Source: Minisyncoccota bacterium (GTDB lineage Bacteria; Patescibacteriota; Minisyncoccia; Phycocordibacterales; PALSA-1337). Taken from it: a stretch of DNA of 64,000 nucleotides. The position numbers were made by a program, and so were the translations under genes. The stretch covers positions 254,984 through 318,983 of the forward strand of contig JBAZRG010000001.1 of the NCBI GenBank assembly GCA_041663145.1. Reading direction: 5' to 3'. A model generated the notes under the pieces. It was not told the DNA's origin, searched no databases, and worked only from the letters and a program-made list of their open reading frames with translations. Positions 7,472-57,985 of the stretch are shown here, in pieces; the first letter of the stretch is position 1; every line of letters begins with the position of its first letter.

Positions 7472-8092
7472 TTACTCCAAAACCTTGAAACGACAATAAC
7501 GAGCAACGGCTATCTTTTCACCAAATTTTTGAGTAGCCTGATCGATAAGTCCCTGAACAGTTACATCACCATTTTTGATGAATGGCTGAGCCAAAAGGAC
7601 CATCTCTCCAAAATATGCATTGAGCTTTCCTTCCAAAATAGCTTTCTTAACAGCCTCAGGCTTGTCCGCCATAGCCTTGGCGGAGGCGGGATTTCCTTTT
7701 ACTTCTTCTTCAAAAACTTCACGAGCGGCTTTCATATCGGACTCCTTTATGTCATCGGTCTTCAAGAATTTTGGATTTGTCGCTGTTACATGCATAGCTA
7801 TATCTCGAGCTAAGGTCTTGAAATCTTCGTTATTTGCCACGAAATCTGTTTCGCAGTTGAGCTCCACCATGGAAGCAACAGTACCATTTGCATGAACATA
7901 AGTCTGGATGGTGCCAGCACGAAAAGTTCGGTCGCTTTTCTTGGAAGCAAATTCACCGCTTTTCTTTCGCAATATGACCAGAGCTTTTTCGGCATCTCCA
8001 CCGGCTTCTTCTAGAGCCTTTTTGCATTGCATGATTGAGATTCCGGTTTGATCGCGAAGTTCTTTGACTTGTTCGGTTGTGATTGTAGGCAT
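7472..8092 (-). CDS. tsf: elongation factor Ts
   Basis: MPTITTEQVKELRDQTGISIMQCKKALEEAGGD... The ORF-track N-terminal 37 aa are an upstream in-frame extension, so the start is placed at the internal Met. Sits downstream of rpsB. Confidence 0.9.
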   Translation of the reverse strand: MPTITTEQVKELRDQTGISIMQCKKALEEAGGDAEKALVILRKKSGEFASKKSDRTFRAGTIQTYVHANGTVASMVELNCETDFVANNEDFKTLARDIAMHVTATNPKFLKTDDIKESDMKAAREVFEEEVKGNPASAKAMADKPEAVKKAILEGKLNAYFGEMVLLAQPFIKNGDVTVQGLIDQATQKFGEKIAVARYCRFKVLE

Positions 8093-8213
8093 GTTTTTTA
8101 TTGTTTTGATATTCTCTTTCTCTTTGTAAGCACCCACACTCTCACGTGATGAATCTGGGTGATCCGACTTACTTTCCGAAATGAAAATAATTGGTCCAAT
8201 CATGGGACTCTTA

Positions 8214-8954
8214 CTAAACCGTCTTCTTTACGTTAGCTGAGTAGGCCTTGGTTATTTCATCGACAAAATATTGGATACTCATCTTTGAACCGTCGTTACC
8301 GACAATAGGATAATTGATATTGGCAATATTACAATCTGAACCTGACAAAGCGATAACGGGAATATTGAAATCCATAGCTTCTTTTATAGCACCAGCTTCA
8401 TGTCGAGGATCGATAACAAATAAAGCATCAGGAGCTTTCTTTAGGATCACAATACCCAAAAACATCTTTTCCAAAGAAGCGATCTCTTTGTCGATAAGCA
8501 TCCTTTCGCGTTTTGTATATTTTGCTAGTTCACCCTTTTCTCGATCAGAGATGAATTTTTCGTAAATATCAATGCGTTTTTTGATCTGAGGAAAGTTTGT
8601 AATGGTTCCACCGATCCATCGTCCATCTACATAAGGCATATTGAGGGACATAGCTGCGTTCTTTATGGTCAAAGAAGCCTCTTTTTTTCCGCCCACAAAC
8701 ATAATAGTTTTGCCTTCTTTGGCAAGAGAAGCTACGAAATCTTTGGCTTTTTCTAGGCTGGCCTCGGTTTTTTCGAGATCGAAGATATCGGTATTGTTTT
8801 TTGTGCCGAATATATAAGGGACTATCGTCGAATGTCTGCGAGATCGAACCATGCCGAAATGAGCGCCGACTTCAAACATCTTATCCAAGGTATTTTTGAT
8901 TTCCATATGTGGATATAAACTATCAAAAATAGGGTTATAAGTCAAATCAAACAT
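8214..8954 (-). CDS. rpsB: 30S ribosomal protein S2
   Basis: 246 aa; canonical uS2 sequence; rpsB-tsf operon order. Confidence 0.95.
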   Translation of the reverse strand: MFDLTYNPIFDSLYPHMEIKNTLDKMFEVGAHFGMVRSRRHSTIVPYIFGTKNNTDIFDLEKTEASLEKAKDFVASLAKEGKTIMFVGGKKEASLTIKNAAMSLNMPYVDGRWIGGTITNFPQIKKRIDIYEKFISDREKGELAKYTKRERMLIDKEIASLEKMFLGIVILKKAPDALFVIDPRHEAGAIKEAMDFNIPVIALSGSDCNIANINYPIVGNDGSKMSIQYFVDEITKAYSANVKKTV

Positions 8955-10468: not shown

Positions 10469-10540
10469 CGCCCCCGTAGTTCAATGGATAGAACAGTTCC
10501 GTCCTAAGGAATAGATGTAGGTTCGATTCCTACCGAGGGC
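10469..10540 (+). tRNA. tRNA-Arg (anticodon CCU)
   Basis: D-arm GTTC-AATGGATA-GAAC, anticodon loop GTCCTAA, T-arm GTAGG-TTCGATT-CCTAC; one C-A mismatch in the acceptor stem. Confidence 0.6.
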
Positions 10541-10581
10541 ACTACTTCGCAACCCTGTAACGCACAGGGTTGCTTCGTAGT
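10541..10581 (+). terminator. tRNA trailer hairpin (CTACTTCGCAA-hairpin motif shared with the tRNA-Gly trailer)
   Basis: GCAACCCTGT-aacgc-ACAGGGTTGC 10 bp stem immediately 3' of tRNA-Arg; no clear U-run. Confidence 0.35.
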
Positions 10582-10657
10582 GCGAGGCACCTTGTAATAT
10601 ACCCTTTAGTGTTATATAATGATTGGGTTAAAAAATCTTATCAATTAACAAAGATCT

Positions 10658-13571: not shown

Positions 13572-13740
13572 ACCCCCCCCCACCACACCTTAATTTGTTT
13601 TCCTCGAACTCTACTCACAATATACCAACATTTTCACAAAGGACTCTCTACAGGGATTCGCGAGTCCTTTGGAAAATGTGTTGGTATATTGTTTCGCAGA
13701 TTATTCTCGGAATACAAATTAAGATGTGGTGGGGGGGTTA
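13572..13740. repeat. about 170 bp nested imperfect palindrome with 27 bp terminal inverted repeats (poly-C / poly-G ends)
   Basis: AACCCCCCCCCACCACACCTTAATTTGT ... ACAAATTAAGATGTGGTGGGGGGGTT; internal perfect 22 bp IR (CCAACATTTTCACAAAGGACTC/GAGTCCTTTGGAAAATGTGTTGG). Confidence 0.7.
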
Positions 13741-15094: not shown

Positions 15095-15315
15095 ATCACA
15101 ATCCACAACTTATACCGAGTTATGAACAGTTTATCCAGAGAATTATCCAGAATTTTTGTTTGACTTTTTATCTCACTCGACTAAACTGACTACAGGCACA
15201 CTTACAGGAGAGGATCCTAAATATCCATATAGGAGTCCACAACAATGCGACCTAGTCGCTTCAGGACACCACCTACAATTTCGCGATTACTCTCCATGTA
15301 CCGGTGGCCATTATG

Positions 15316-15347
15316 GCAAAACATCCCGCTTCGGCGGGATGTTTTGC
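15316..15347. other. 12-13 bp stem with UUCG tetraloop inside GC-rich non-coding region
   Basis: GCAAAACATCCCGC-TTCG-GCGGGATGTTTTGC; no flanking U-run. Confidence 0.5.
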
Positions 15348-15698
15348 GCACGCACCAATTTGCACTAGCTCGCGTTAACCTAAAATACTCCCAATACTAC
15401 ACTGTTGGAGGAGTTTCGGGTGTTGTCGGCTGTGTTGGAGCCGTATTTGGCTGTTTTGCCATGTTATTAAAAGCGGGTTGATTAGCTCCCGCACAGTCGC
15501 GCCTAATTGCGCAACGGAGATGATTATATCATCGGGTCAATATGATCCAGCTTTGCCTCAGAAAATTGACATCTCGTCAAAACGATAGTCCAATTCTGGC
15601 TTCATTTCGTACTCCTACGGCATGATGTAATTTGTCTAAAAATTTCGACATGTCTATATGGTTCCAGTCAATAAATAACGATGGAATATTTATATATA

Positions 15699-15844
15699 GA
15701 CCCCAACATAATGTTCCCGCCACAATCCTGCGTAATCGCTTCTCAAATTACAGCCGTGTTTGGTTCCAGGGCTTCACCAAACACGGGTAATTTTTCGAAG
15801 CTCAATCGCAACTCGGATTGTTTCGGGAACATTATGTTGGGGTC
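15699..15844. mobile_element. MITE copy A (inverted relative to copies B and C)
   Basis: GACCCCAACATAATGTTCCCG 21 bp terminal inverted repeats; about 95% identical to the reverse complement of copies at 42332 and 57773. Confidence 0.8.
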
Positions 15845-15857
15845 TTACGATAACCAA

Positions 15858-20458: not shown

Positions 20459-20510
20459 CCCGCACTACTTCGCAATTTGTCCTTTTAGACAAATTGCGAA
20501 GTAGTGCGGG
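20459..20510. repeat. perfect 23 bp-stem hairpin; its right arm plus TGCGGGT duplicates the tRNA-Gly trailer/3' end (DR-left)
   Basis: CCCGCACTACTTCGCAATTTGTC-ctttta-GACAAATTGCGAAGTAGTGCGGG; 39 nt (20473-20511) identical to 21933-21971. Confidence 0.8.
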
Positions 20511-21827: not shown

Positions 21828-21964
21828 ATTAAAATATTAACAGATCGTGTCCTTCTACGCTAAAGCTTCGAAGGACTACTTCGCAATTTTTATAATAATC
21901 TTCGTGATACTCATTGTGCCTGCACTTCGAAGCAATTTGTCCTTTTAGACAAATTGCGAAGTAG

Positions 21965-22035
21965 TGCGGGTAGCGAGAATCGAACTCGCGTCTCAACCTT
22001 GGGAAGGTCGCATTCTGCCACTAAACCATACCCGC
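21965..22035 (-). tRNA. tRNA-Gly (anticodon CCC)
   Basis: GCGGGTA acceptor, anticodon loop TTCCCAA, T-arm CGCGAG-TTCGATT-CTCGC; followed by conserved trailer hairpin. Confidence 0.8.
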
Positions 22036-31928: not shown

Positions 31929-32039
31929 ACGTTTTATAATTAAGGATTAATTAATGGATATTATAGCAGATATTATTTTAATCAACATAGCAAAAAGTAC
32001 ATAAAATTGGGTATTACCTAAAGGCAAAGATTTTAGGAG

Positions 32040-32072
32040 ATAAAGAAAACGTCCCGGTTTTTGCCGGGACGT
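32040..32072 (-). terminator. rho-independent terminator of rnpB
   Basis: On minus strand ACGTCCCGG-caaaaa-CCGGGACGT followed by TTTTCTTT. Confidence 0.65.
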
Positions 32073-32077
32073 CTCCA

Positions 32078-32516
32078 TATTGTCATACCATAAGCCGAAT
32101 TCTGTGTCAGTCATAGAACTCAATCGAGTCCTTGTGACCTTAACAACCATTTATCTTGTCCGACACTTGCGTGCCGGATCTAGCGGTTCTTCCTTCCAAC
32201 TTTTACTTGCGCAGAAGTTGAGAGGACACGACCTTGCACCGAGGTAAGGATTTTGCCGTTGCACCCCACGCGTTACCGCGCGGACTGATCCTAACAAATT
32301 GTGAGGATCCATGATTCATTTCCAAATCATGCGTCTCTGTTCGCACCTCTGGGCGTTACCCTGACGGGCGTTACCTCATAACACCGTAAGGTGTCATGAT
32401 TCCGATATAAATCGGAACGCTACCCTGCTATCATCGCTTTCGCGATGCCGGTGTTCGGACTTTCCTCATCTTGCAAAGCCCGAAAGCTTCACAAAACGTA
32501 GTTGTTTGGTACAACG
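32078..32516 (-). ncRNA. rnpB: RNase P RNA (bacterial type), ends approximate
   Basis: Minus strand carries GAGGAAAGTCCGAACACC (CR-I), ...CAGGGTAACGCCCAG..., GCGAACAGAGACGC, and the 3' ACACAGAATTCGGCTTATGG (P4 ACAGAAYCCGGCUUA homolog); 670 bp region without ORFs. Confidence 0.85.
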
Positions 32517-32522
32517 GTGGTA

Positions 32523-32581: not shown

Positions 32582-32739
32582 TAGGAGCTTAGTGAACATT
32601 GTTCCTCATCTCCTCGCAAGGTCACCCACTCCAAATTGCAACCACATATCAGCAGATGGAACTACTGATATGTGGGCAATTTGTTCGGGGTTCGAATCGC
32701 ATTGCGAGTCGTTTCGGAACAATATTCACTAAGCTCCTA
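32582..32739 (+). ncRNA. S-element copy 1: extended hairpin with conserved 12 nt loop and T-loop-like motif (candidate structured RNA, strand uncertain)
   Basis: Outer 24 bp IR, conserved internal sequences, inner 11 bp stem, loop CAGATGGAACTA; covaries with copy at 50960-51117. Confidence 0.5.
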
Positions 32740-32816
32740 TGACACGTACGGAACGCTCACTGATATGCCCTCCTGACGAGCTTATGTCATAGAGTTGTGT
32801 TTTTGAAGCGTTTTCC

Positions 32817-35137
32817 TTACACAATTTCGCAAACTCCTGACACACACGCCAACTCTTTCTTCAGATCCGTCTCGTTTTGTTTTTCGTAAGTTATAATCTT
32901 CGAATAATCCACATGTTCCAAGCGCTTTGCAAGCTCTTTATATTTCTTTTCATCTATAGACTCATACGGAGCCAGCTTATAGACAGCATCCTCGCGTGGC
33001 AAGAATGACAGACCTCCGCAGATATCCCAATTTTCATAGACCCAGTTTGCAACCGCTATCCATTCATCATTACCTATAGAGATAGTGACTGAAGGATTGT
33101 GTTCTGTATAATTTTCCTTGACCATTTTCCAATACTCCAACTGCTGCAATGCTGTCTGATCATCTCGAAAGACCGAACCAGCTGGTGCTTTGACTGGAAA
33201 CTCTAGAACGTAGGTATTGGCGGACTCGGGTGATTGGCCAACCTCCGGGTTATAAGGTACACCTTGATCTTTGAGCATTTTGAATAACGAATCGGTCGAT
33301 GAGATCCTGATGCGACGAATATAGAACTTGGAGTGTCTCGGGTGCATACCTGAAGAACAATCAACAGTTTGTGACAAGGTTCCGGACGGTTTTACACAAG
33401 TTATAGCAGTTGATTCCCCTATTCCAAAACGTTTTGCATACTCTTTATTTATTCGTATTGCCTCAGCTTTTAGTCTACGCATGACCTCTGGCTTACGGAC
33501 AGCTGGACTATCCCACTGACCAGTGATAGATACTCCGAGCAATCTTTCACGTTCACAATGATCTTTCCATTCTTTGGACAAATACTGGAAATTTGTAAGA
33601 GATGACTGATACGTACCGAGAATGGTCGCGATTCGCATCTTCTTCATGAGAGTAGCTTCGGTATCTTCGGCTCGAGCCACGATCTCGGACAGATTACAGA
33701 ACTGTTTTGATTGAAGAATAATCTCACCACACGGATTTGTACCGATAGGTCCGATGATATGTTGACCAGTCGAATCGAAATAGCCCTTGTATTCTTTCAA
33801 AACTTTTATGCGCCTCTCTGGAAGAGTTTTTGCCAATGAACCGCGATTGAATATCCCACGTTCACCAGACCTACTCTCGACAAGTGCCATCCATTCCTTC
33901 AAAAATTCTTCATTTGTCGGCTTGTTGATATATACAGCGGAATTGTTAGCGAGCATTCTGTGAGGATGAGTCATGTAGAAAGCACCCTTCTTTGCATCAC
34001 GAATGAGTTCATCGCCGAGATCAGACAAAGAAATCATGGCGCTTCGTCTCACACCGCCAGCCACCACACAATCTCCGATCATACAGATGATATCGTGCAG
34101 ATCGAGCGGGCGTAGACGTTTACCTTGGCGAGCCAACATGATTTGTCTCGTAAATGACAGAAGTCGAATAAGAGGTGCCGGACCAGATGATTTGCCACCC
34201 ATAACTTTGAGACGCGCGCCTTCAGGGCGTAATTGGGAGAAATCAAAATCGATGTCACTGCCGGAAGCCCAGGTCTTCATACCTAGGACAAGCGAATTTG
34301 CCCATCCTTCTTTGCTATCTGGAACAACGTGTACAGGAAGTTTATCGCCATTTTGCATCATAATCTGCGGAAACTTCTCGACATTGGCACTTTCGACTGC
34401 CCAACCGCAACCTGTACCATTCATAGAGATATGAATGATCTCACCGAGATCTTGGAATGATTCTGGAGCGATAAAAGAACAGTTATATGCACAAATATTG
34501 TCTCTACGTGCTGGAGTGCCAGCAAACTGTAAGAGTCTCATCGACGGCATGGCCTGGTGATTTAGGATAGCTTCTCTAATCTCTTTGTATTCGCTTTCTT
34601 TGAGCTTATTGCCGAGATTCTCCTTCATGAAAGTGAGATACCGATCGACAGTCTCTATCCATGTCTCACGACGATTTTCAGAATCTATCCAGCGAGCATA
34701 AGAACGATAGTAAACGAACTCACCTAAAGCATTTCTAAAATATTTTTTGGAATCAGTAGCGAGCTTGCGAACATTTTCCGGAACTTCAAAACCTACAGAA
34801 CGCAGTTTTGCTCGTTCTTCACGATAAATAACGTAGTGTTTGGCGGCTTTGACATAGTCAGAGCGCATTAGCTCGGCCTCAACTATATCCTGAACACCTT
34901 CAACTGTAGGGATGAAGTTAGAAAATTTTCTTTTGATCCTAGTAAGCTCATTTTGAACCTGAGTTGCAACAACTCCAGCCTCTTCGATGGATCCTTCATT
35001 GACCGCGTTCATGCCCTTCCAGATGGCATTTGTGATTTTGGCAAGATCGAATGGAACGATTCGACCGTCTCTTTTGATAATCGTGGGGATTGAAACAACC
35101 TTACCCGCGGTTGTGGCGGATTTTTTCTTCTTTGGCA
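32817..35137 (-). CDS. ribonucleotide reductase, large catalytic protein with N-terminal ATP-cone (probably adenosylcobalamin-dependent class II)
   Basis: NPCGEI active-site motif, ATP-cone (VPFDLAKI...), C-terminal Cys pairs, no adjacent NrdB; start placed at ATG giving MPKKKK (the ORF track starts at an upstream TTG). Confidence 0.8.
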
Positions 35138-40042: not shown

Positions 40043-40435
40043 TTATGTAGACAGCTCCCCAGGTTCGAACTTGCTCTCATACTGAGGACGAATCCAAATC
40101 GAAGGGACGAGTGTGTCAATGCGGTTTCTCGAAAGAAATTCAACGAAGCTGTGGCGAATTTCAACGAGTGCTGCAGCCTTTTCATCTTCACCAGGGTTGA
40201 AAGGTTTTCCTGTGCCGTATTCGTCTTCACCGGCAGTGTATAGGACCTCGATCTGTACGGGTGCCTCATTGGCCGTGTACCGTACATCGAAGACGTCGAA
40301 TGCGACATCCTCCTTCCCTTCGATACCGAATATGGCTTCGACCGTGGCAATAAGGCTTCGAGACAAATCATCGAATGTCTCATCGATGATCATGTTCGCA
40401 GCCAAACGGTTGAGGTATACCTTGATCTGTGGCAT
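40043..40435 (-). CDS. tautomerase-family-like small acidic protein (GC-rich)
   Basis: 131 aa from Met175 of the ORF; MPQIKVYLNR... N-terminal Pro pattern; the upstream part of the 304-aa ORF is a Cys/His/Arg-rich GC artefact. Confidence 0.4.
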   Translation of the reverse strand: MPQIKVYLNRLAANMIIDETFDDLSRSLIATVEAIFGIEGKEDVAFDVFDVRYTANEAPVQIEVLYTAGEDEYGTGKPFNPGEDEKAAALVEIRHSFVEFLSRNRIDTLVPSIWIRPQYESKFEPGELST

Positions 40436-40461
40436 TACTGATTCCTTTCTTTGGTTGAGGG

Positions 40462-41073
40462 TTAAATCCAATCCATGACCGGCGACTTCTTGCGAAACCG
40501 ATAGACACAGAGTGGAACGGTTATGCAGAAACTCCCGACTGTCATGTAGATTGGCAAAATCAGATTCGCAAGCGTGAAATCGGAAATCGCAAAGAAGTTC
40601 AAGCTGTAGGCGACGGAGAAGAATCCCCACGCAAACGGCCTGTCTTGATCCGGCGACTTCCAAAGAAACGCTATGGTCGGAAGACATGCGAAGCTGTCGG
40701 CAACTATGGCTACATACAACGCGTATTGAACAAGGTCCTTGCTCTCCCTCATAAACAGCCACATCACTAAAGAAATGATGCCGAAGATAAGACAGACAAT
40801 ATCTAACTTGTTCAACTTTGTTCGCTCGTACTGCCGTTTGAAGGCAATAAGAGTGACAATGAGCGGATTCGTGAATCCGAACACCGCAGCCCAGACGTTT
40901 GCTTTTGCGCCGGAGCTTTTGTAAGTCAGGAGCAATGCGAGACCTATGAAAGTCCACAAACTCCAGCTCGTAATGTTCGGATGAACCTTCTTCTGGTAAG
41001 TCCGAATCGCGTAAGGTATTACACTTACAACGATCAGAATGCCGGAAATCAGTCCGATTAATTCTTTGTCCAA
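40462..41073 (-). CDS. hypothetical 6-TM membrane protein
   Basis: 203 aa; six hydrophobic helices. Confidence 0.45.
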   Translation of the reverse strand: MDKELIGLISGILIVVSVIPYAIRTYQKKVHPNITSWSLWTFIGLALLLTYKSSGAKANVWAAVFGFTNPLIVTLIAFKRQYERTKLNKLDIVCLIFGIISLVMWLFMRESKDLVQYALYVAIVADSFACLPTIAFLWKSPDQDRPFAWGFFSVAYSLNFFAISDFTLANLILPIYMTVGSFCITVPLCVYRFRKKSPVMDWI

Positions 41074-41208
41074 GGATTGCTCCCTTCTTGGTTAATTGTT
41101 TTATTGTGAAGAGCTGAAACTCTTAGGGGCACGACATCTCTGTCATGATCCCAGTTGAGTGGAGGATTGTAAATGGAACACAATCCTCCTTTATGAAACC
41201 GAAACGTA

Positions 41209-41880
41209 TCAGTTTGCCCGCACAATGGTATAGGGGTAATAACCAATTGTTGAATCAGTACCCCATGCTTCCAGGGTGCAGTCTCGCAGGGTAGCATTAT
41301 CGCCGAAATAGAGACAGCGATATTCTTTCTGCATCCCCAGATGGGTCGAATATGGTCCCCAAACGGGAAACTTTCCCTTGAAGACAAACAATACGCCACT
41401 GTCGCCGAGTCTCGTAGGACCATTCGTTGAAACAAGCCGTTCAACCTCTTGCTTCAGGAATGCCAGCGTCTCATCGTCGGTTGCAGTCTTGTACCACTCG
41501 AAGTTGGTCGTCGTGATATCAATCCTGATAAGGACCCTGTTGAAGTTTTCCACGAAGACCATTTGAAGAGGCCGCCCACGGAAGTTTCCGTAGGTGATGA
41601 TCGTGTCATCTCCATCGTGTGCAATGCCGTGTTGAAAAACAGCCGGAGGCATCTGGGGGACATTCGGTCCTTTGACACGATTGAATGCTTCCGAACTACT
41701 TGAGGTGTCCTCGAGCTGAGGCGGCCAGTGCAATTTTTCCAGAGCAACGTATCTCCGTTCCGATGCGGCCAATTGCCTCTCAAGCGAGTCGGCTCGATTT
41801 TTAAATGAGAGTGCGGCACCCAATGACACCGCGATTGCTGCAACGAATGCTATGACTACCAATTTTTGTGTCGTCTTCAT
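41209..41880 (-). CDS. hypothetical secreted protein (GC-rich)
   Basis: 224 aa from Met27; N-terminal signal/TM (MKTTQKLVVIAFVAAIAVSLGAALS). Confidence 0.45.
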   Translation of the reverse strand: MKTTQKLVVIAFVAAIAVSLGAALSFKNRADSLERQLAASERRYVALEKLHWPPQLEDTSSSSEAFNRVKGPNVPQMPPAVFQHGIAHDGDDTIITYGNFRGRPLQMVFVENFNRVLIRIDITTTNFEWYKTATDDETLAFLKQEVERLVSTNGPTRLGDSGVLFVFKGKFPVWGPYSTHLGMQKEYRCLYFGDNATLRDCTLEAWGTDSTIGYYPYTIVRAN

Positions 41881-42027
41881 AACAATGTACTGAGTACTGA
41901 TTTTGTCCGAACCTCCCCTTTTCGAGGGTACTAAACGGACATTTGTTGAGGTATTCAAATCTGGCGGTATTGTAACAAATTACGTAATGAAAGTCAACCT
42001 CTGTCCAATTTACAGCTTGGAAATCTG

Positions 42028-42331: not shown

Positions 42332-42504
42332 AGACCCCAACATAATGTTCCCGAAACAATCCGAGTTGCGATTGAGCTTCGAAAAATTACCCGTGTTTGG
42401 TGAAGCCTTGGAACCAAACACGGTTGTAATTTGAGAAGCGATTACGCGATCGAGCACGATCGCCTACTGGGGAGGATTGTGGCGGGAACATTATGTTGGG
42501 GGTC
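42332..42504. mobile_element. MITE copy B (with 26 nt internal palindromic insertion)
   Basis: Same TIRs GACCCCAACATAATGTTCCCG / CGGGAACATTATGTTGGGGGTC. Confidence 0.8.
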
Positions 42505-48946: not shown

Positions 48947-50950
48947 ATGCAAAATCAAAAACCCTATAACAATAGACCAAATAATAATTTCACGAGACGT
49001 CCTTTGCCACAACCGCAGACACGCATCATGCACAACGACAATCCATCAGTAAAACCGGCAACAGTGACACCGACGCCAAGAGTCGGCATAGACAATGGCA
49101 ACGGACACAGGATAGTTCTCGGCAAAGGTGCCCGTAAGCATCCCGAAGCATTGCGACATATAGCTGGCGCTCGTATGAACGTTATTCGCAAAGAATCACG
49201 ACCAATGAAAAGAGGTGGTCCTTCACGCCCTCTTACCCATCACAAAGGCGAAGATGTCATTCCAGTTTTGGCGCCAAATTCGATCCGAATAGTACCATTG
49301 GGCGGAGTCGAGGAGATCGGACGCAATATGACAGCAGTCGAATTTGGAGATGATATCATCGTCATCGATATCGGCTTTCAATTTCGTGATGAAAATACTC
49401 CTGGTATAGATTACATCCTGCCAAATACGAAATATCTCGAAGAACGCCAAAACAAAGTTCGAGCGGTTTTGGTCACTCACGGACACCTAGACCACATCGG
49501 AGGTATACCTTATATCATGCCTCGAATCGGAAATCCGCCACTCTACACTCGCATGCTCACGTCAGTATTGATCCAAAAAAGACAGGAGGAGTTTCCACAT
49601 GTTCCCAAACTCGATATTCGAGTCATAGAAAAAAATGAAACCATAACTGTCGGTAAACTCAAAGTCAAATTCTTCGCAGTAACCCACACCATACCGGATG
49701 CTATGGGAATCATCATCGAGACTCCTTACGGTTCGATAGTTCATACGGGAGACTTGAAACTAGATCATATGGACGGCATCGTCGATCCTGTCGAAGAAGC
49801 CGAGTATGATCGGGCTTTCAAAAATGAAAAAGTACTACTTCTCATGGCTGATTCGACCAACGTTGAAAATCCAGGATTTTCGATACCGGAAAAAGTAGTT
49901 CACAAGAACATCGAAGAGATCATAAAGAACATGCAAGGACGGTTGATCATCGCCACATTCTCTTCCCTATTGGAAAGAATCTTGAAGATCATCGACTTTG
50001 CCGAAAAATACGGAAAGAAAGTAGTCGTCGAAGGACGAAGTATGAAAAATAACATCGAGATCTGCAAACATCTCGGTCTGCTCAAAGCCAAAAACGAGAC
50101 AATGATCACAACAGATGACATCGAAAATTTCCCGCCAGAACGCATAGTTATACTGGCAACCGGAGCCCAGGGAGATGAATTTGCCGCAATGATGCGTATG
50201 TCAAACAAAACTCACGCCAAGATCAGAATAACCCCACGCGATACGATCATGCTTTCTTCTTCGGTTATTCCAGGCAATGAAAGGGCCGTGCAAAAACTCA
50301 AAGACAATCTTTCGAGACAAGGAGCCAAGATCATTCATTATCGTATAGCAGACGTTCACTCATCCGGACATGCCAACCGCGACGAGACAGCCTGGATACA
50401 CAAAAAGATCCATCCGAAATTCTTCATCCCTTGCCACGGATATCACTACATGTTGCGTGTTCACGGCGAGATCGCCAAGGACGCCAATGGTCTCAAAGAA
50501 GAGGATATAATCATTCCAGACAATAGTTCCATAATTGAAATCCAAAATGACGGAGGCAAAATTGTTAAACTAAAAGAAAAAGCTGCGTCAGGACTGGTCT
50601 TAGTTGATGGATTTTCTGTCGGAGATGTCCAAGATGTCGTTATCCGAGATCGTCAAATGTTGGCGCAAGATGGTATATTTATAATATTCGGTATCGTCAA
50701 TGCAGAAAACGGTAGGCTGAAGAAATCTCCAGATATTATCTCTCGCGGTTTCGTCTATCTACGTGAATCTCAAGATCTTTTGCATGAAGTCCGTCTAATA
50801 ATCAAAGATACTGTGGACAAATCAACTCGCGGTCAAAATCCGATCAATGTTGATTTCGTAAAAGATGCAATCACCGATGCAGTCAGTAAATTCCTACTCC
50901 AAAAGACAGCAAAGAGGCCGATGGTTATTCCGGTTATTTTGACGATTTAA
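48947..50950 (+). CDS. rnj: ribonuclease J with about 100 aa low-complexity N-terminal extension
   Basis: 667 aa; HGHLDHIG metallo-beta-lactamase motif, beta-CASP and C-terminal domain. Confidence 0.9.
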   Translation: MQNQKPYNNRPNNNFTRRPLPQPQTRIMHNDNPSVKPATVTPTPRVGIDNGNGHRIVLGKGARKHPEALRHIAGARMNVIRKESRPMKRGGPSRPLTHHKGEDVIPVLAPNSIRIVPLGGVEEIGRNMTAVEFGDDIIVIDIGFQFRDENTPGIDYILPNTKYLEERQNKVRAVLVTHGHLDHIGGIPYIMPRIGNPPLYTRMLTSVLIQKRQEEFPHVPKLDIRVIEKNETITVGKLKVKFFAVTHTIPDAMGIIIETPYGSIVHTGDLKLDHMDGIVDPVEEAEYDRAFKNEKVLLLMADSTNVENPGFSIPEKVVHKNIEEIIKNMQGRLIIATFSSLLERILKIIDFAEKYGKKVVVEGRSMKNNIEICKHLGLLKAKNETMITTDDIENFPPERIVILATGAQGDEFAAMMRMSNKTHAKIRITPRDTIMLSSSVIPGNERAVQKLKDNLSRQGAKIIHYRIADVHSSGHANRDETAWIHKKIHPKFFIPCHGYHYMLRVHGEIAKDANGLKEEDIIIPDNSSIIEIQNDGGKIVKLKEKAASGLVLVDGFSVGDVQDVVIRDRQMLAQDGIFIIFGIVNAENGRLKKSPDIISRGFVYLRESQDLLHEVRLIIKDTVDKSTRGQNPINVDFVKDAITDAVSKFLLQKTAKRPMVIPVILTI

Positions 50951-50959
50951 TAATCTCTT

Positions 50960-51117
50960 GGAGAGCTCGGTGGATGTTGTGCTGACACAACCAGCAAGGT
51001 CACCCGCTCCAAATTGCAACCGTATTAGAGCAGATGGAACTACTCTAATACGGGCAATTTGTTCGGGGTTCAAATCGCATTGCAAGTCATGCAAAAACAG
51101 TATGTACCGAGCTCTTC
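50960..51117 (+). ncRNA. S-element copy 2 (candidate structured RNA, strand uncertain)
   Basis: Same conserved loop CAGATGGAACTA and conserved internal sequences as copy 1; inner stem CCGTATTAGAG/CTCTAATACGG; outer IR GGAGAGCTCGGT/ACCGAGCTCTTC. Confidence 0.5.
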
Positions 51118-51161
51118 TGGAAACAGCCTAATCGAATATCTGCTATGAGAACTAATACTGC

Positions 51162-52550
51162 TTACAATTGATCGATCATTGTTCGCTGAATGTTTTCGGC
51201 TTTAACCATCACACTATTGCCATAAAAAGCGTTTTTAGGAGCATTCCAATTTCCTCCAGCATAATATCGTAGTGCTGCCGTTCTCTCCGCAGTATATGTC
51301 TGTTTGGCGGCACCCAAATCCGTCAGATACATAGCCGAGGCCATAAAAGCATGTTCCGGGAACCAAGGGTTGGGCATACCTGATATTCCCAATAATTTCG
51401 CTACCCTATCTGCAACACTACTCACCCATGTCGATGGTATAAATTGAGCCGGTCCCATCGCTCCACCGTACCCACCAGTCGATAGAGGACAAGAGACGAG
51501 AGTTGCATAAGGATCGAGACCGAGCTCGTTGGTAATGGAAAGAAACGGTGCAACGTCTCTATCTGGCTTCATAACATTTGCTATTGGTGTTTTTGTGGTA
51601 ATTTTGATTCCAGCACCAGTGTCTTTATTTGCCAGATAACAAGAACCGACATATTTACCAAAAGTCGCATCTTTATCGAGACTTGATTCTTGAGCAAAAA
51701 TTGCCAAGAGAAATGCCGGTCGTATTCCTGTCCTCTTTTCGGCTTCAAGAGCATATTTGTACGCATCACCAAAAGGTATTTCAATAGCTCCAGCCAACTG
51801 GAACAGACTGGCCCTGATCATTGCCGCTTTGGCCTGTTTTTCAGCCAACAGCGTGGCATATGACTTTTCACTACCCTTACTCAAAGCCAAAAGTTTTTGT
51901 TTCTCTTTTTGATTTGCCGCTATGTTCTTTTGCTCCTGCTGTATCTCATATCTTGCGTCGATCTCGGCATTTCTTCGTTTATCAAGATCATTTTTTTCCG
52001 TAGTCGTTTCGTCCTGATCTGATCGCAATTGTTCGAAAGTACTTTTGAGTCCAGTTTGAACTGATTCGAAATAATCAATATCTTCGAAAAATTCAGACAA
52101 GTCCGATTGGGACAATAACATTTCCGGTACCGAATACTGATCCAACTCATTTGTCTTGCGCAATAAAACTGCCAAAGATTCTTTGCCTTTAGTGATTCGC
52201 ACCTCCAATTCATCGATGTGACTCTGTTTTTGATTTATGTCCTGACCAAGAGTCTGAATGCGCAGATTTTTTGCTTTGATATTGAGCTCGGCGGTCTTGA
52301 TTTTGGCGGTCAAAATAGCAATGTCTCGTGATAGTGAGGCACTTTGCCCCTTAGCAGTAGCTAGGTCTTTTTCAGCTTGTTTTTGTTCGGCCAGGACTTG
52401 TTCGAGAGCCTCTTCACAGGCAATCTTTTCAGCCGCAGTCTTACAGCTCATCGTTTCCGCATTTGAAATGTTGGCGAAAAATAAGGATGAAAAACAAACA
52501 ACCAGAAGCCCATACACGAGAAAGGTGGGCTTAAAGAAGTATTTCTTCAT
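51162..52550 (-). CDS. secreted coiled-coil protein with C-terminal lytic transglycosylase domain (MltB/family 3-like)
   Basis: Signal peptide from Met26; long coiled coil; GAMGPAQFIPSTW and AQESS motifs. Confidence 0.7.
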   Translation of the reverse strand: MKKYFFKPTFLVYGLLVVCFSSLFFANISNAETMSCKTAAEKIACEEALEQVLAEQKQAEKDLATAKGQSASLSRDIAILTAKIKTAELNIKAKNLRIQTLGQDINQKQSHIDELEVRITKGKESLAVLLRKTNELDQYSVPEMLLSQSDLSEFFEDIDYFESVQTGLKSTFEQLRSDQDETTTEKNDLDKRRNAEIDARYEIQQEQKNIAANQKEKQKLLALSKGSEKSYATLLAEKQAKAAMIRASLFQLAGAIEIPFGDAYKYALEAEKRTGIRPAFLLAIFAQESSLDKDATFGKYVGSCYLANKDTGAGIKITTKTPIANVMKPDRDVAPFLSITNELGLDPYATLVSCPLSTGGYGGAMGPAQFIPSTWVSSVADRVAKLLGISGMPNPWFPEHAFMASAMYLTDLGAAKQTYTAERTAALRYYAGGNWNAPKNAFYGNSVMVKAENIQRTMIDQL

Positions 52551-52628
52551 TGGATATACTGACATTATGATATTATAACCTATTTGGAGAATGGTTTGTG
52601 GCTTTTTGTGGCTTTTCCTGATCAACTA

Positions 52629-57696: not shown

Positions 57697-57772
57697 GACT
57701 GAGGATCAAAGTAAGCCCCTCACATCCTTATTTTGTATTCCGAGAATAATCTGCGGACTTTATGTCGTATTA

Positions 57773-57915
57773 CCCCCAACATAATGTTCCCGAAACAATC
57801 CGAGTTGCGATTGAGCTTCGAAAAATTACCCGTGTTTGGTGAAGCCTTGGAACCAAACACGGTTGTAATTTGAGAAGCGATTACGAGGATTGTGGCGGGA
57901 ACATTATGTTGGGGG
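57773..57915. mobile_element. MITE copy C (in the ftsZ upstream region)
   Basis: CCCCCAACATAATGTTCCCG ... CGGGAACATTATGTTGGGGG; flanked by TTA on both sides. Confidence 0.8.
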
Positions 57916-57985
57916 TTATACGATTATTTGATTTTACTTGTGTCTTCTAACTCCTGTGTTAATATACAACCTATCCAATACTTAT

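Follow-up and report, generated by a model that had tools for sequence, protein, structure and literature searches.

What is the long hairpin that separates the RNase J gene from its convergent neighbor, and does it belong to that one spacer or to something more widely distributed? The CPR/Patescibacteria have tiny, densely packed genomes whose non-coding content is little known. The hairpin is ~158 nt long and near-perfect, and occupies positions 50960-51117 of the window, by which we mean the whole 64-kb stretch of DNA that was analyzed.

The hairpin and its counterpart at copy 1

The element lies between the RNase J gene (rnj; 48947-50950, plus strand, 667 aa) and a gene on the minus strand (51162-52625, 487 aa) whose product has a weak match to the SLT (lytic transglycosylase) domain. 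By its RNase J homologues, the window belongs to Candidatus Paceibacterota, a group of the CPR/Patescibacteria. The element starts 9 nt past the rnj stop codon at 50950 and ends 44 nt short of the stop codon of the SLT-domain gene at 51162, so that, as the first-pass annotation had stated, two convergent genes have their 3' ends on either side of it. The outer inverted repeat described there is also present, with GGAGAGCTCGGT (50960-50971) pairing with ACCGAGCTCTTC (51106-51117) and a single G.T wobble between the arms. The plus strand has a folding energy of -71.7 kcal/mol, compared with -42.5 +/- 4.0 kcal/mol for dinucleotide shuffles (z = -7.3, with none of 200 shuffles as good), and the minus strand gives -72.7 kcal/mol (z = -7.9). 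With 50 Watson-Crick pairs, 4 G.U pairs and one G.G mismatch this is the most eroded copy of the family described below; its imperfections are mainly G.T on the rnj-sense strand, and it looks like an old, eroding copy.

The 5' outer arm (50960-50984) and the 3' outer arm (51093-51117) enclose a conserved core at 50991-51089, which is matched at 101.7 bits (E = 2e-26) by R1, a covariance model built on the 99-nt core. Proceeding inward on the plus strand, the 5' side of an asymmetric internal loop, GGTCACCCGCTC (50998-51009), is kept both in copy 1 and in a copy from another genome (the L249 copy), and is followed by the 5' strand of the conserved stem C, CAAATTGC (51010-51017), and a conserved AA bulge (51018-51019). 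The variable stem V (51020-51030 and 51043-51053) carries the terminal loop CAGATGGAACTA (51031-51042), which is identical in copy 1; the L249 copy and the copies of a sister subfamily, F2, have a different loop, TCCAAGG(A/C)TTC(A). The 3' strand of stem C, GCAATTTG (51054-51061), leads into the 3' side of the internal loop, TTCGGGGTTCAAATCGCA (51062-51079), the most conserved block of the superfamily, which has the consensus TTCGrrGyTC(r)AATCGCA. When the three forward frames of the core were read by eye, no start codon, shared ORF or conserved frame was found, and the only ORF listed over the hairpin (66 aa, on the opposite strand) has no counterpart in copy 1.

When the window was searched with this region by blastn, a single further match was returned, to 32616-32710 on the same strand (86% identity over 95 nt, E ~1e-27). 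The 99-nt core repeats 32613-32711, and the loops and inner stem of the two are 96% identical. The complete counterpart, S-element copy 1 (S1), spans 32582-32741 on the plus strand; on one side of it a minus-strand gene for class II ribonucleotide reductase ends with its stop codon at 32817, and on the other is the promoter-like site that belongs to the RNase P RNA gene. Pairwise alignment of S1 with the hairpin at rnj (copy 2, or S2) gave the invariant blocks GCAAGGTCACCC, CTCCAAATTGCAACC, GCAGATGGAACTAC, GGGCAATTTGTTCGGGGTTC and AATCGCATTGC. The variable inner stem, CCGTATTAGAG/CTCTAATACGG in S2 and CCACATATCAG/CTGATATGTGG in S1, differs at six base pairs, and all six changes are compensated. 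The outer arms also differ in sequence, with pairing retained in each copy; the changes in the S2 arms are compensated and their G.T wobbles fall on the plus strand. The original proposal that S2 repeats a conserved element, with stems that are different yet complementary, is borne out by the blastn match and by the compensated inner-stem changes, and both the similarity and the hairpin of S2 are far beyond chance.

The RNase P RNA gene next to S1 (RF00010, bacterial class A) was located at 32076-32517 on the minus strand, with 70.8 bits and E = 2e-21 over the full-length model; the default Rfam scan missed it because this score is below the gathering score of 100. A sigma-70-like site (32551 to 32523, minus strand) lies just upstream of it, and a 67-aa ORF at 31947-32150 that overlaps the 3' part of the gene is probably spurious.

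A dispersed family in the window and in another genome

The first-pass annotation had counted a pair of elements, and the same window contains three additional copies that form the F2 subfamily. Exactly five strong R1 matches were found in the window (86-104 bits, E <= 1e-21), three on the plus strand and two on the minus strand, and beyond these five copies no match in the 64 kb exceeded 18 bits. An inverted-repeat scan likewise revealed further hairpins of the same size at 15698-15845, 42335-42501, 57765-57923 and 13575-13737. The first of these is F2a (plus strand, R1 89.6 bits), next to a histidine-phosphatase gene; F2c (42335-42501, minus strand) lies between an M48 peptidase gene and a downstream tRNA gene and has an extra 25-nt mini-hairpin module; and F2b (57765-57923, minus strand) lies between a ydjM-like gene and ftsZ, directly upstream of ftsZ. 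The F2 copies have common arms, CCCCAACATAATGTTCCCG..CAATCC, and from CCCC to GGGG the three differ by only two substitutions and the one 25-nt module, while their flanks are unrelated. Their interior, CTCAAATTACA(A/G)CC-(stem-loop-stem)-GGGTAATTTTTCGAAGCTCAATCGCA, can be aligned to the S core, CTCCAAATTGCAACC-(stem-loop-stem)-GGGCAATTTGTTCGGGGTTCGAATCGCA.

The layout of the family consists of outer arms of 24-39 bp, an asymmetric internal loop with GGTCACC..CTC on its 5' side and the consensus given above on its 3' side, the A/T-rich conserved stem (in which GC becomes AT in F2), the conserved AA bulge, a variable 11-bp stem and a loop of 11-12 nt at the tip. The elements are 148-167 nt long and non-coding, and approximately 1.5% of the window DNA is made up of large hairpins of one family. 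The remaining hairpin of the inverted-repeat scan, at 13575-13737 between an MFS transporter gene and an enolase gene, is a near-perfect structure of 163 nt with C7/G7 ends. It scores only 12.4 bits with R1 and has a different interior, together with the family layout and the same CTC-stem...stem-TTCG junction, and may represent a third, distant subfamily.

Several other structured sequences were noted in the window. The module found only in F2c (42446-42471) reads CCCCAGTAGGCGATCGTGCTCGATCG on the strand of the element, and a 12-mer of it, CCCAGTAGGCGA, recurs with a compensated mini-hairpin directly past the rnj stop codon in two relatives, L005 (12008-12032) and L006. This recurrence suggests that the hairpin units are modular or nested. 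A separate family of short palindromes, (CCC)GCACTACTTCGCAA...TTGCGAAGTAGTGC(GGG), is present at 10539-10583, 20459-20510 and 21875-21970; two of the three adjoin tRNA genes, and two of the three contain the S-element duplex CAAATTGC/GCAATTTG. Downstream of the enolase gene there are ~600 nt of non-coding DNA (15095-15697) with hairpins at 15313-15462, and this stretch gave only chance-level matches to Rfam (istR, E = 0.07; rsmX, E = 0.3). Genes of the RhuM family are frequent on mobile islands. One lies in the segment 38884-41958, where it precedes minus-strand ORFs that overlap one another and lack Pfam matches (40043-41958); the segment may be decayed or foreign.

In the sequence collections searched the family is scarce. 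A degenerate core pattern covering both subfamilies identified one true locus among 185,579 species genomes, L249 in a Candidatus Parcubacteria MAG, along with three chance matches, and no true match in JGI metagenome contigs (one chance match) or IMG/VR viral contigs (none). The exact S-type 22-mer of the 3' block had no matches in genome and metagenome contigs, 14-17-mers gave only chance matches in viral contigs, as confirmed by reading and by blastn, and no phage or plasmid record was matched by blastn. Rfam 15, with its tRNA, 6S, Y RNA, SRP and ribozyme families, produced no gathering-score match to the element over the whole window, no match to S2 at E <= 10, and for S1 at the same threshold only a chance match to mir-1992 (E = 0.39). 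No description of such repeats in Patescibacteria was found in the literature, and across the Rfam, phage, plasmid and viral collections searched the family matches no described RNA family or mobile element.

The L249 copy (R1 109 bits) combines an S-type core and an F2-type loop with entirely different, fully complementary stems. Its core is identical to S1 and S2 at 44 of 48 positions (92%), and when identity was partitioned by structural part, the internal loops, stem C and the bulge were 92-96% identical, compared with 50-64% for stems A and V, while the outer arms could not be aligned. The coding DNA of L249 is 65-73% identical to that of L258, a Logan contig that encodes protein P0234 and appears to come from the genome of the window; the DUF8128 protein that adjoins the L249 copy is 60% identical to P0234. 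Since the core is 92% identical between distant genomes whose genes are 65-73% identical, it is either under strong sequence constraint or moving horizontally, with the stems apparently constrained only to pair.

Among 13 related loci (~270 kb) searched with R1, no clear member other than the L249 copy was found. A weak match of 15.9 bits at L260 8039-8216 has the family layout, AAAATTGT-AA-stem. The spacer between a sigma-like gene and the DUF8128 gene holds hairpins of 120-170 nt and largely unrelated sequence in four genomes (L249 3816-3968; L256 9857-9976; L259 9806-9974; L260 9390-9517 and the 8039-8216 stretch just mentioned). Two different Parcubacteria genomes share a further hairpin repeat, GTCATTCCCGCGAA(A/G)GCGGGAATGAC; it fills the rnj/SLT spacer in L007 (11990-12090) and is also found in L260 (12367-12466).

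The sites occupied by these copies could also be examined in relatives. Six related genomes, with RNase J 82-88% identical, retain the gene order SBP-rnj-SLT-L25 with rnj/SLT spacers of 9, 27, 35, 75, 126 and 128 nt, and R1 matched none of these spacers. In the reverse comparison, the site of the L249 copy, between the sigma-like gene and the DUF8128 gene, is a spacer of just 37 nt in L258 (2365-2401). These empty orthologous sites, together with near-identical F2 copies in unrelated flanks, indicate a duplicative or mobile element. The rnj/SLT spacers of L005 and L255 contain strings of 10-13 nt in common with S1 and F2c, in the same order (the F2c-module 12-mer mentioned above, and ATCAGCAGAT and GAATCGCATTGCG from S1), which may be what is left of an old element between the two genes. 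Such relic matches allow another history, that of ancient residence between rnj and the SLT gene followed by decay rather than recent insertion. Given the relic-like strings at rnj/SLT and the diverse hairpins of the sigma-like/DUF8128 spacer, long hairpins keep recurring in the intergenic spacers of this group and turn over fast.

Position, structural conservation and alternative explanations

All seven of the family or related hairpins examined lie no more than 75 nt downstream of the stop codon of a protein gene, in either orientation: S2 9 nt past rnj, F2a 12 nt past the histidine-phosphatase gene, the 13575-13737 hairpin 13 nt past the MFS gene, F2c 16 nt past the M48 peptidase gene, the L249 copy ~25 nt, F2b 68 nt past ydjM and S1 75 nt past the ribonucleotide reductase gene. 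Such a placement could reflect selection against insertions at other sites, or else a modest 3'-end hairpin role that is independent of orientation; as a secondary role, such a contribution to termination, insulation or protection from 3' exonucleases is plausible.

The first-pass annotation had also suggested that S2 might act as a bidirectional attenuator. In its fullest form this explanation holds that a terminator or attenuator evolved locally between the convergent rnj and SLT genes, and that the likeness to copy 1 reflects a shared terminator design. The position agrees with it, S2 being flanked by two convergent stop codons just as intrinsic terminators, including bidirectional ones, form a stable hairpin directly past stop codons between convergent genes; every member of the family lies just downstream of a stop codon, the hairpin is highly stable in both orientations, and in four related genomes long hairpins, unrelated in sequence, occupy the sigma-like/DUF8128 spacer. 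The sequence does not agree. The plus strand reads ...CTCTTC followed by TGGAAACAG and the minus strand ...CTCTCC followed by AAGAGATTATT, with no T run past the stem on either strand, and a terminator scan of 50700-51400 gave no sites. Whereas intrinsic terminators have U/A tracts, the S-element lacks them, is approximately five times longer and has a conserved, sequence-specific interior; a 60-bp rod with conserved internal loops far exceeds what a terminator needs. Relatives hold the same convergent pair with as little as 9-35 nt between the genes, and since all six keep it without the element, nothing at the rnj/SLT site requires one. Local evolution also leaves unexplained the near-identical copies at unrelated loci and the 92-96% conservation of an asymmetric core in copies elsewhere in this genome and in another one. 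Only the positional part of the suggestion therefore stands, and we consider a locally evolved attenuator improbable.

The conservation of the structure bears on a different explanation, a multicopy family of structured non-coding RNAs in which the ~100-nt core would be the functional RNA and would bind a protein through the asymmetric internal loop, the perfectly paired outer arms would serve as a processing stalk (for RNase III, for example) that releases the core from any transcript, and the paralogues would diverge freely in their helices, as those of Y RNAs, vault RNAs and 6S RNA do. When six members were aligned, every cell of the inner helix was paired (100%); six of its pairs change on both sides and none on one side only, and this strong covariation favors an RNA. 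For the whole modeled structure the covariation score is 0.359, compared with 0.148 +/- 0.029 in shuffles, with none of 500 reaching the observed value, in a test that used six sequences only and an alignment fitted to the model; the score collapses once the pairing partners are slid. Paired cells amount to 89.6%, compared with 77.2% in shuffles, and 11 pairs of the whole structure changed on both sides. The contrast between the core loops with stem C and the variable stems, and the conservation of the core between genomes with far more divergent genes, speak for the same explanation, and the asymmetry of the core implies that polarity matters for something. The outer-arm imperfections of S2 and L249 are mostly G.T on the forward strand; pooled over S2, L249 and S1 by manual pairing there are ~5 forward and 1 reverse (p ~0.1, not significant), so that the excess is suggestive only. 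Free closing stems with fixed internal loops are also precisely the pattern expected of a protein-binding RNA. Bacterial Y RNAs and 6S RNA paralogues resemble the S-element in design: their closing helix is long and arbitrary in sequence, their internal loop or bubble is asymmetric and conserved, they have a stem-loop at the tip, and each genome has several paralogues.

The composition and surroundings of the helices point the other way. Each copy has 50-59 Watson-Crick pairs and 0-4 G.U pairs; G.U pairs number 0 of 56-59 in S1 and the three F2 copies, three in L249 and four in S2, and such near-absence is unusual for selected RNA helices. Since the helices are almost purely Watson-Crick and the plus and minus strands fold about equally well, the data suggest that complementarity is maintained in the DNA, or that the copies are young, and are less in keeping with typical RNA helices. 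A promoter scan found no promoter-like site at S2 and none at a fixed distance from any copy, nor was any terminator-like signal found at such a distance; the only promoter-like site at S1 points away from it, toward rnpB on the other strand, and the TTGACA upstream represents overlapping boxes. Three copies run in the sense direction of the nearest gene upstream, and the other three in antisense. Thus, of the features generally expected of a non-coding RNA gene, compensated structure was observed, and transcription signals of its own or a fixed polarity were not. The element is also absent from the syntenic site in six relatives, its core pattern occurs in one other of 185,579 species genomes, and the S copies match no Rfam family (chance mir-1992 aside). 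In lacking their own promoter, in their mixed orientation and patchy distribution, and in giving no match to the Rfam 6S, Y RNA or tRNA models, the S-elements differ from Y RNAs and 6S RNA. We regard a non-coding RNA family, the main rival explanation, as possible but doubtful.

Alternatively, the element could be a site read as duplex or cruciform DNA, in recombination, replication or nucleoid-protein binding, resembling integron attC or REP/BIME sequences and with template-switch repair keeping the palindrome perfect. The almost purely Watson-Crick arms and the use of both orientations are consistent with this, as is the occurrence of the conserved short duplex of stem C in two shorter palindromes of the window. 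However, there are no attC-type R''/R' boxes at the ends of the element, the S-element is far longer than REP elements, and neither a recombinase gene nor a RAYT-like one was seen in the window; we give this explanation only a slim chance.

A proposed mobile-like intergenic repeat and its relation to known elements

The explanation that we favor, with a probability of approximately 0.5, is a non-autonomous, MITE/ERIC-like family of structured intergenic repeats in Paceibacterota/Parcubacteria, in which the hairpin and the sequence-specific core are needed for spread or maintenance. Its evidence includes the multiple copies in both orientations, the near-identity of the F2 copies as a sign of recent spread, presence and absence at orthologous sites, a core far more conserved than the genes, and Watson-Crick covariation; the rare and patchy occurrence, the possible relics at rnj/SLT, the position close behind stop codons and the precedent of known MITEs speak for it as well. 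Propagation or retention would require a hairpin of single-stranded DNA or RNA, and a trans-acting protein would read the asymmetric internal loop, the A/T-rich stem CAAATTGC/GCAATTTG and the AA bulge in a sequence-specific manner, leaving the arm sequences free provided they pair. Copies would survive only in spacers just past stop codons, where a transcribed hairpin is tolerated, and the transcribed hairpin may double as an orientation-independent 3'-end hairpin that provides insulation or protection from 3' exonucleases. S2 would be an old copy sitting where two genes converge at their 3' ends.

MITEs occupy intergenic and 3'-UTR sites, give stable stem-loop transcripts that are cleaved by RNase III in the arms, can carry nested insertions, and have direct repeats that fade (PMC10969869). 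The S-element family resembles them in being small (MITEs are under ~500 bp) and non-coding, in having several dispersed copies, some near-identical, and in its presence and absence at orthologous sites. Shared terminal inverted repeats were not found; the arms differ among S1, S2, L249 and F2, and the center is conserved. No direct repeat flanks the F2 copies, whose flanks were aligned, or S1 and S2, although this absence of a target-site duplication is weak evidence against a MITE because direct repeats fade with time (PMC10969869). Among the ~55 window genes scanned, all of them housekeeping, there was no transposase, integrase or reverse transcriptase. Because the search for conserved termini and for a target duplication was negative, we do not class the family as bona fide MITEs.

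A number of other identities were considered and rejected. The ends of S1 (TAGGAGC/GCTCCTA) and S2 (GGAGAGC/GCTCTTC) do not correspond to the RYYYAAC/GTTRRRY of integron attC sites, and the neighbors are housekeeping genes. Inverted repeats of the kind found in retron msr-msd are present, but there is no adjacent reverse transcriptase, the neighbors being rnj, the SLT-domain gene, ribonucleotide reductase, rnpB, ftsZ and similar genes. The defining parts of REP elements are absent. A tRNA-like or Y-RNA-like reading of GGTTCGAATC fails since there is no flanking T-stem and no match to a tRNA model, and its first T is a C in the L249 and F2 copies. For a 6S-like RNA there are too many copies and no model match, and TIGR-Tas arrays, unlike the S-element, are tandem and need a Tas gene.

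A central loop conserved above the level of housekeeping genes, with compensated turnover of the stems, points to a dedicated recognition factor. It is tempting to speculate, although we think it unlikely, that the family represents a new class of structured RNA specific to CPR bacteria, or an RNA- or single-stranded-DNA-mediated mobile element, in which a protein reads the invariant loop and stem C and RNase III trims the arms. If so, the changing stems would carry copy-specific information, such as small duplex-derived RNAs, or would regenerate by hairpin-templated copying as the element propagates, and either mechanism would be one not described for bacterial repeats. The family may offer a handle on a new mobile-element mechanism, with a conserved center, free termini and no target duplication, or on an unrecognized RNA-protein system in uncultivated CPR bacteria. 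In practical terms, S-elements mark the 3' ends of genes, could mislead gene callers through spurious ORFs over the elements, could complicate assembly, and may serve as strain markers.

ERIC sequences have a conserved central repeat; they show no sequence similarity to the S-element and belong to another host phylum, the S-element being found in Patescibacteria. The arms of the S-element are almost wholly replaced between copies with perfect compensation and its asymmetric internal loop is near-invariant across genomes, which sets it apart from ERIC. Both are imperfect palindromes, of ~130-160 nt in ERIC, that are intergenic, often just after genes and in either orientation; ERIC copy number likewise varies by lineage, and ERIC sequences are co-transcribed with their neighbors, alter mRNA fate and have no known transposase (PMC10969869).

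The Correia elements of Neisseria (CREE), QMITE2, SPRITE, RUP and BOX are, like the S-elements, small, non-coding, multicopy and located in 3'-UTR or intergenic DNA. Correia elements and similar MITEs also share the long paired arms, which give RNase III-type double-stranded RNA in transcripts, and the nesting described for them (PMC10969869) resembles the extra mini-hairpin module of F2c. The ends of Correia elements are conserved repeats of 26 bp, accompanied by duplication of a TA target, whereas in the S-element family the termini differ between subfamilies and no duplication was found. A center that is conserved most and terminal arms that are conserved least are the opposite of what a cut-and-paste MITE shows, and the family inverts the usual MITE conservation pattern, with the center fixed and the termini free.
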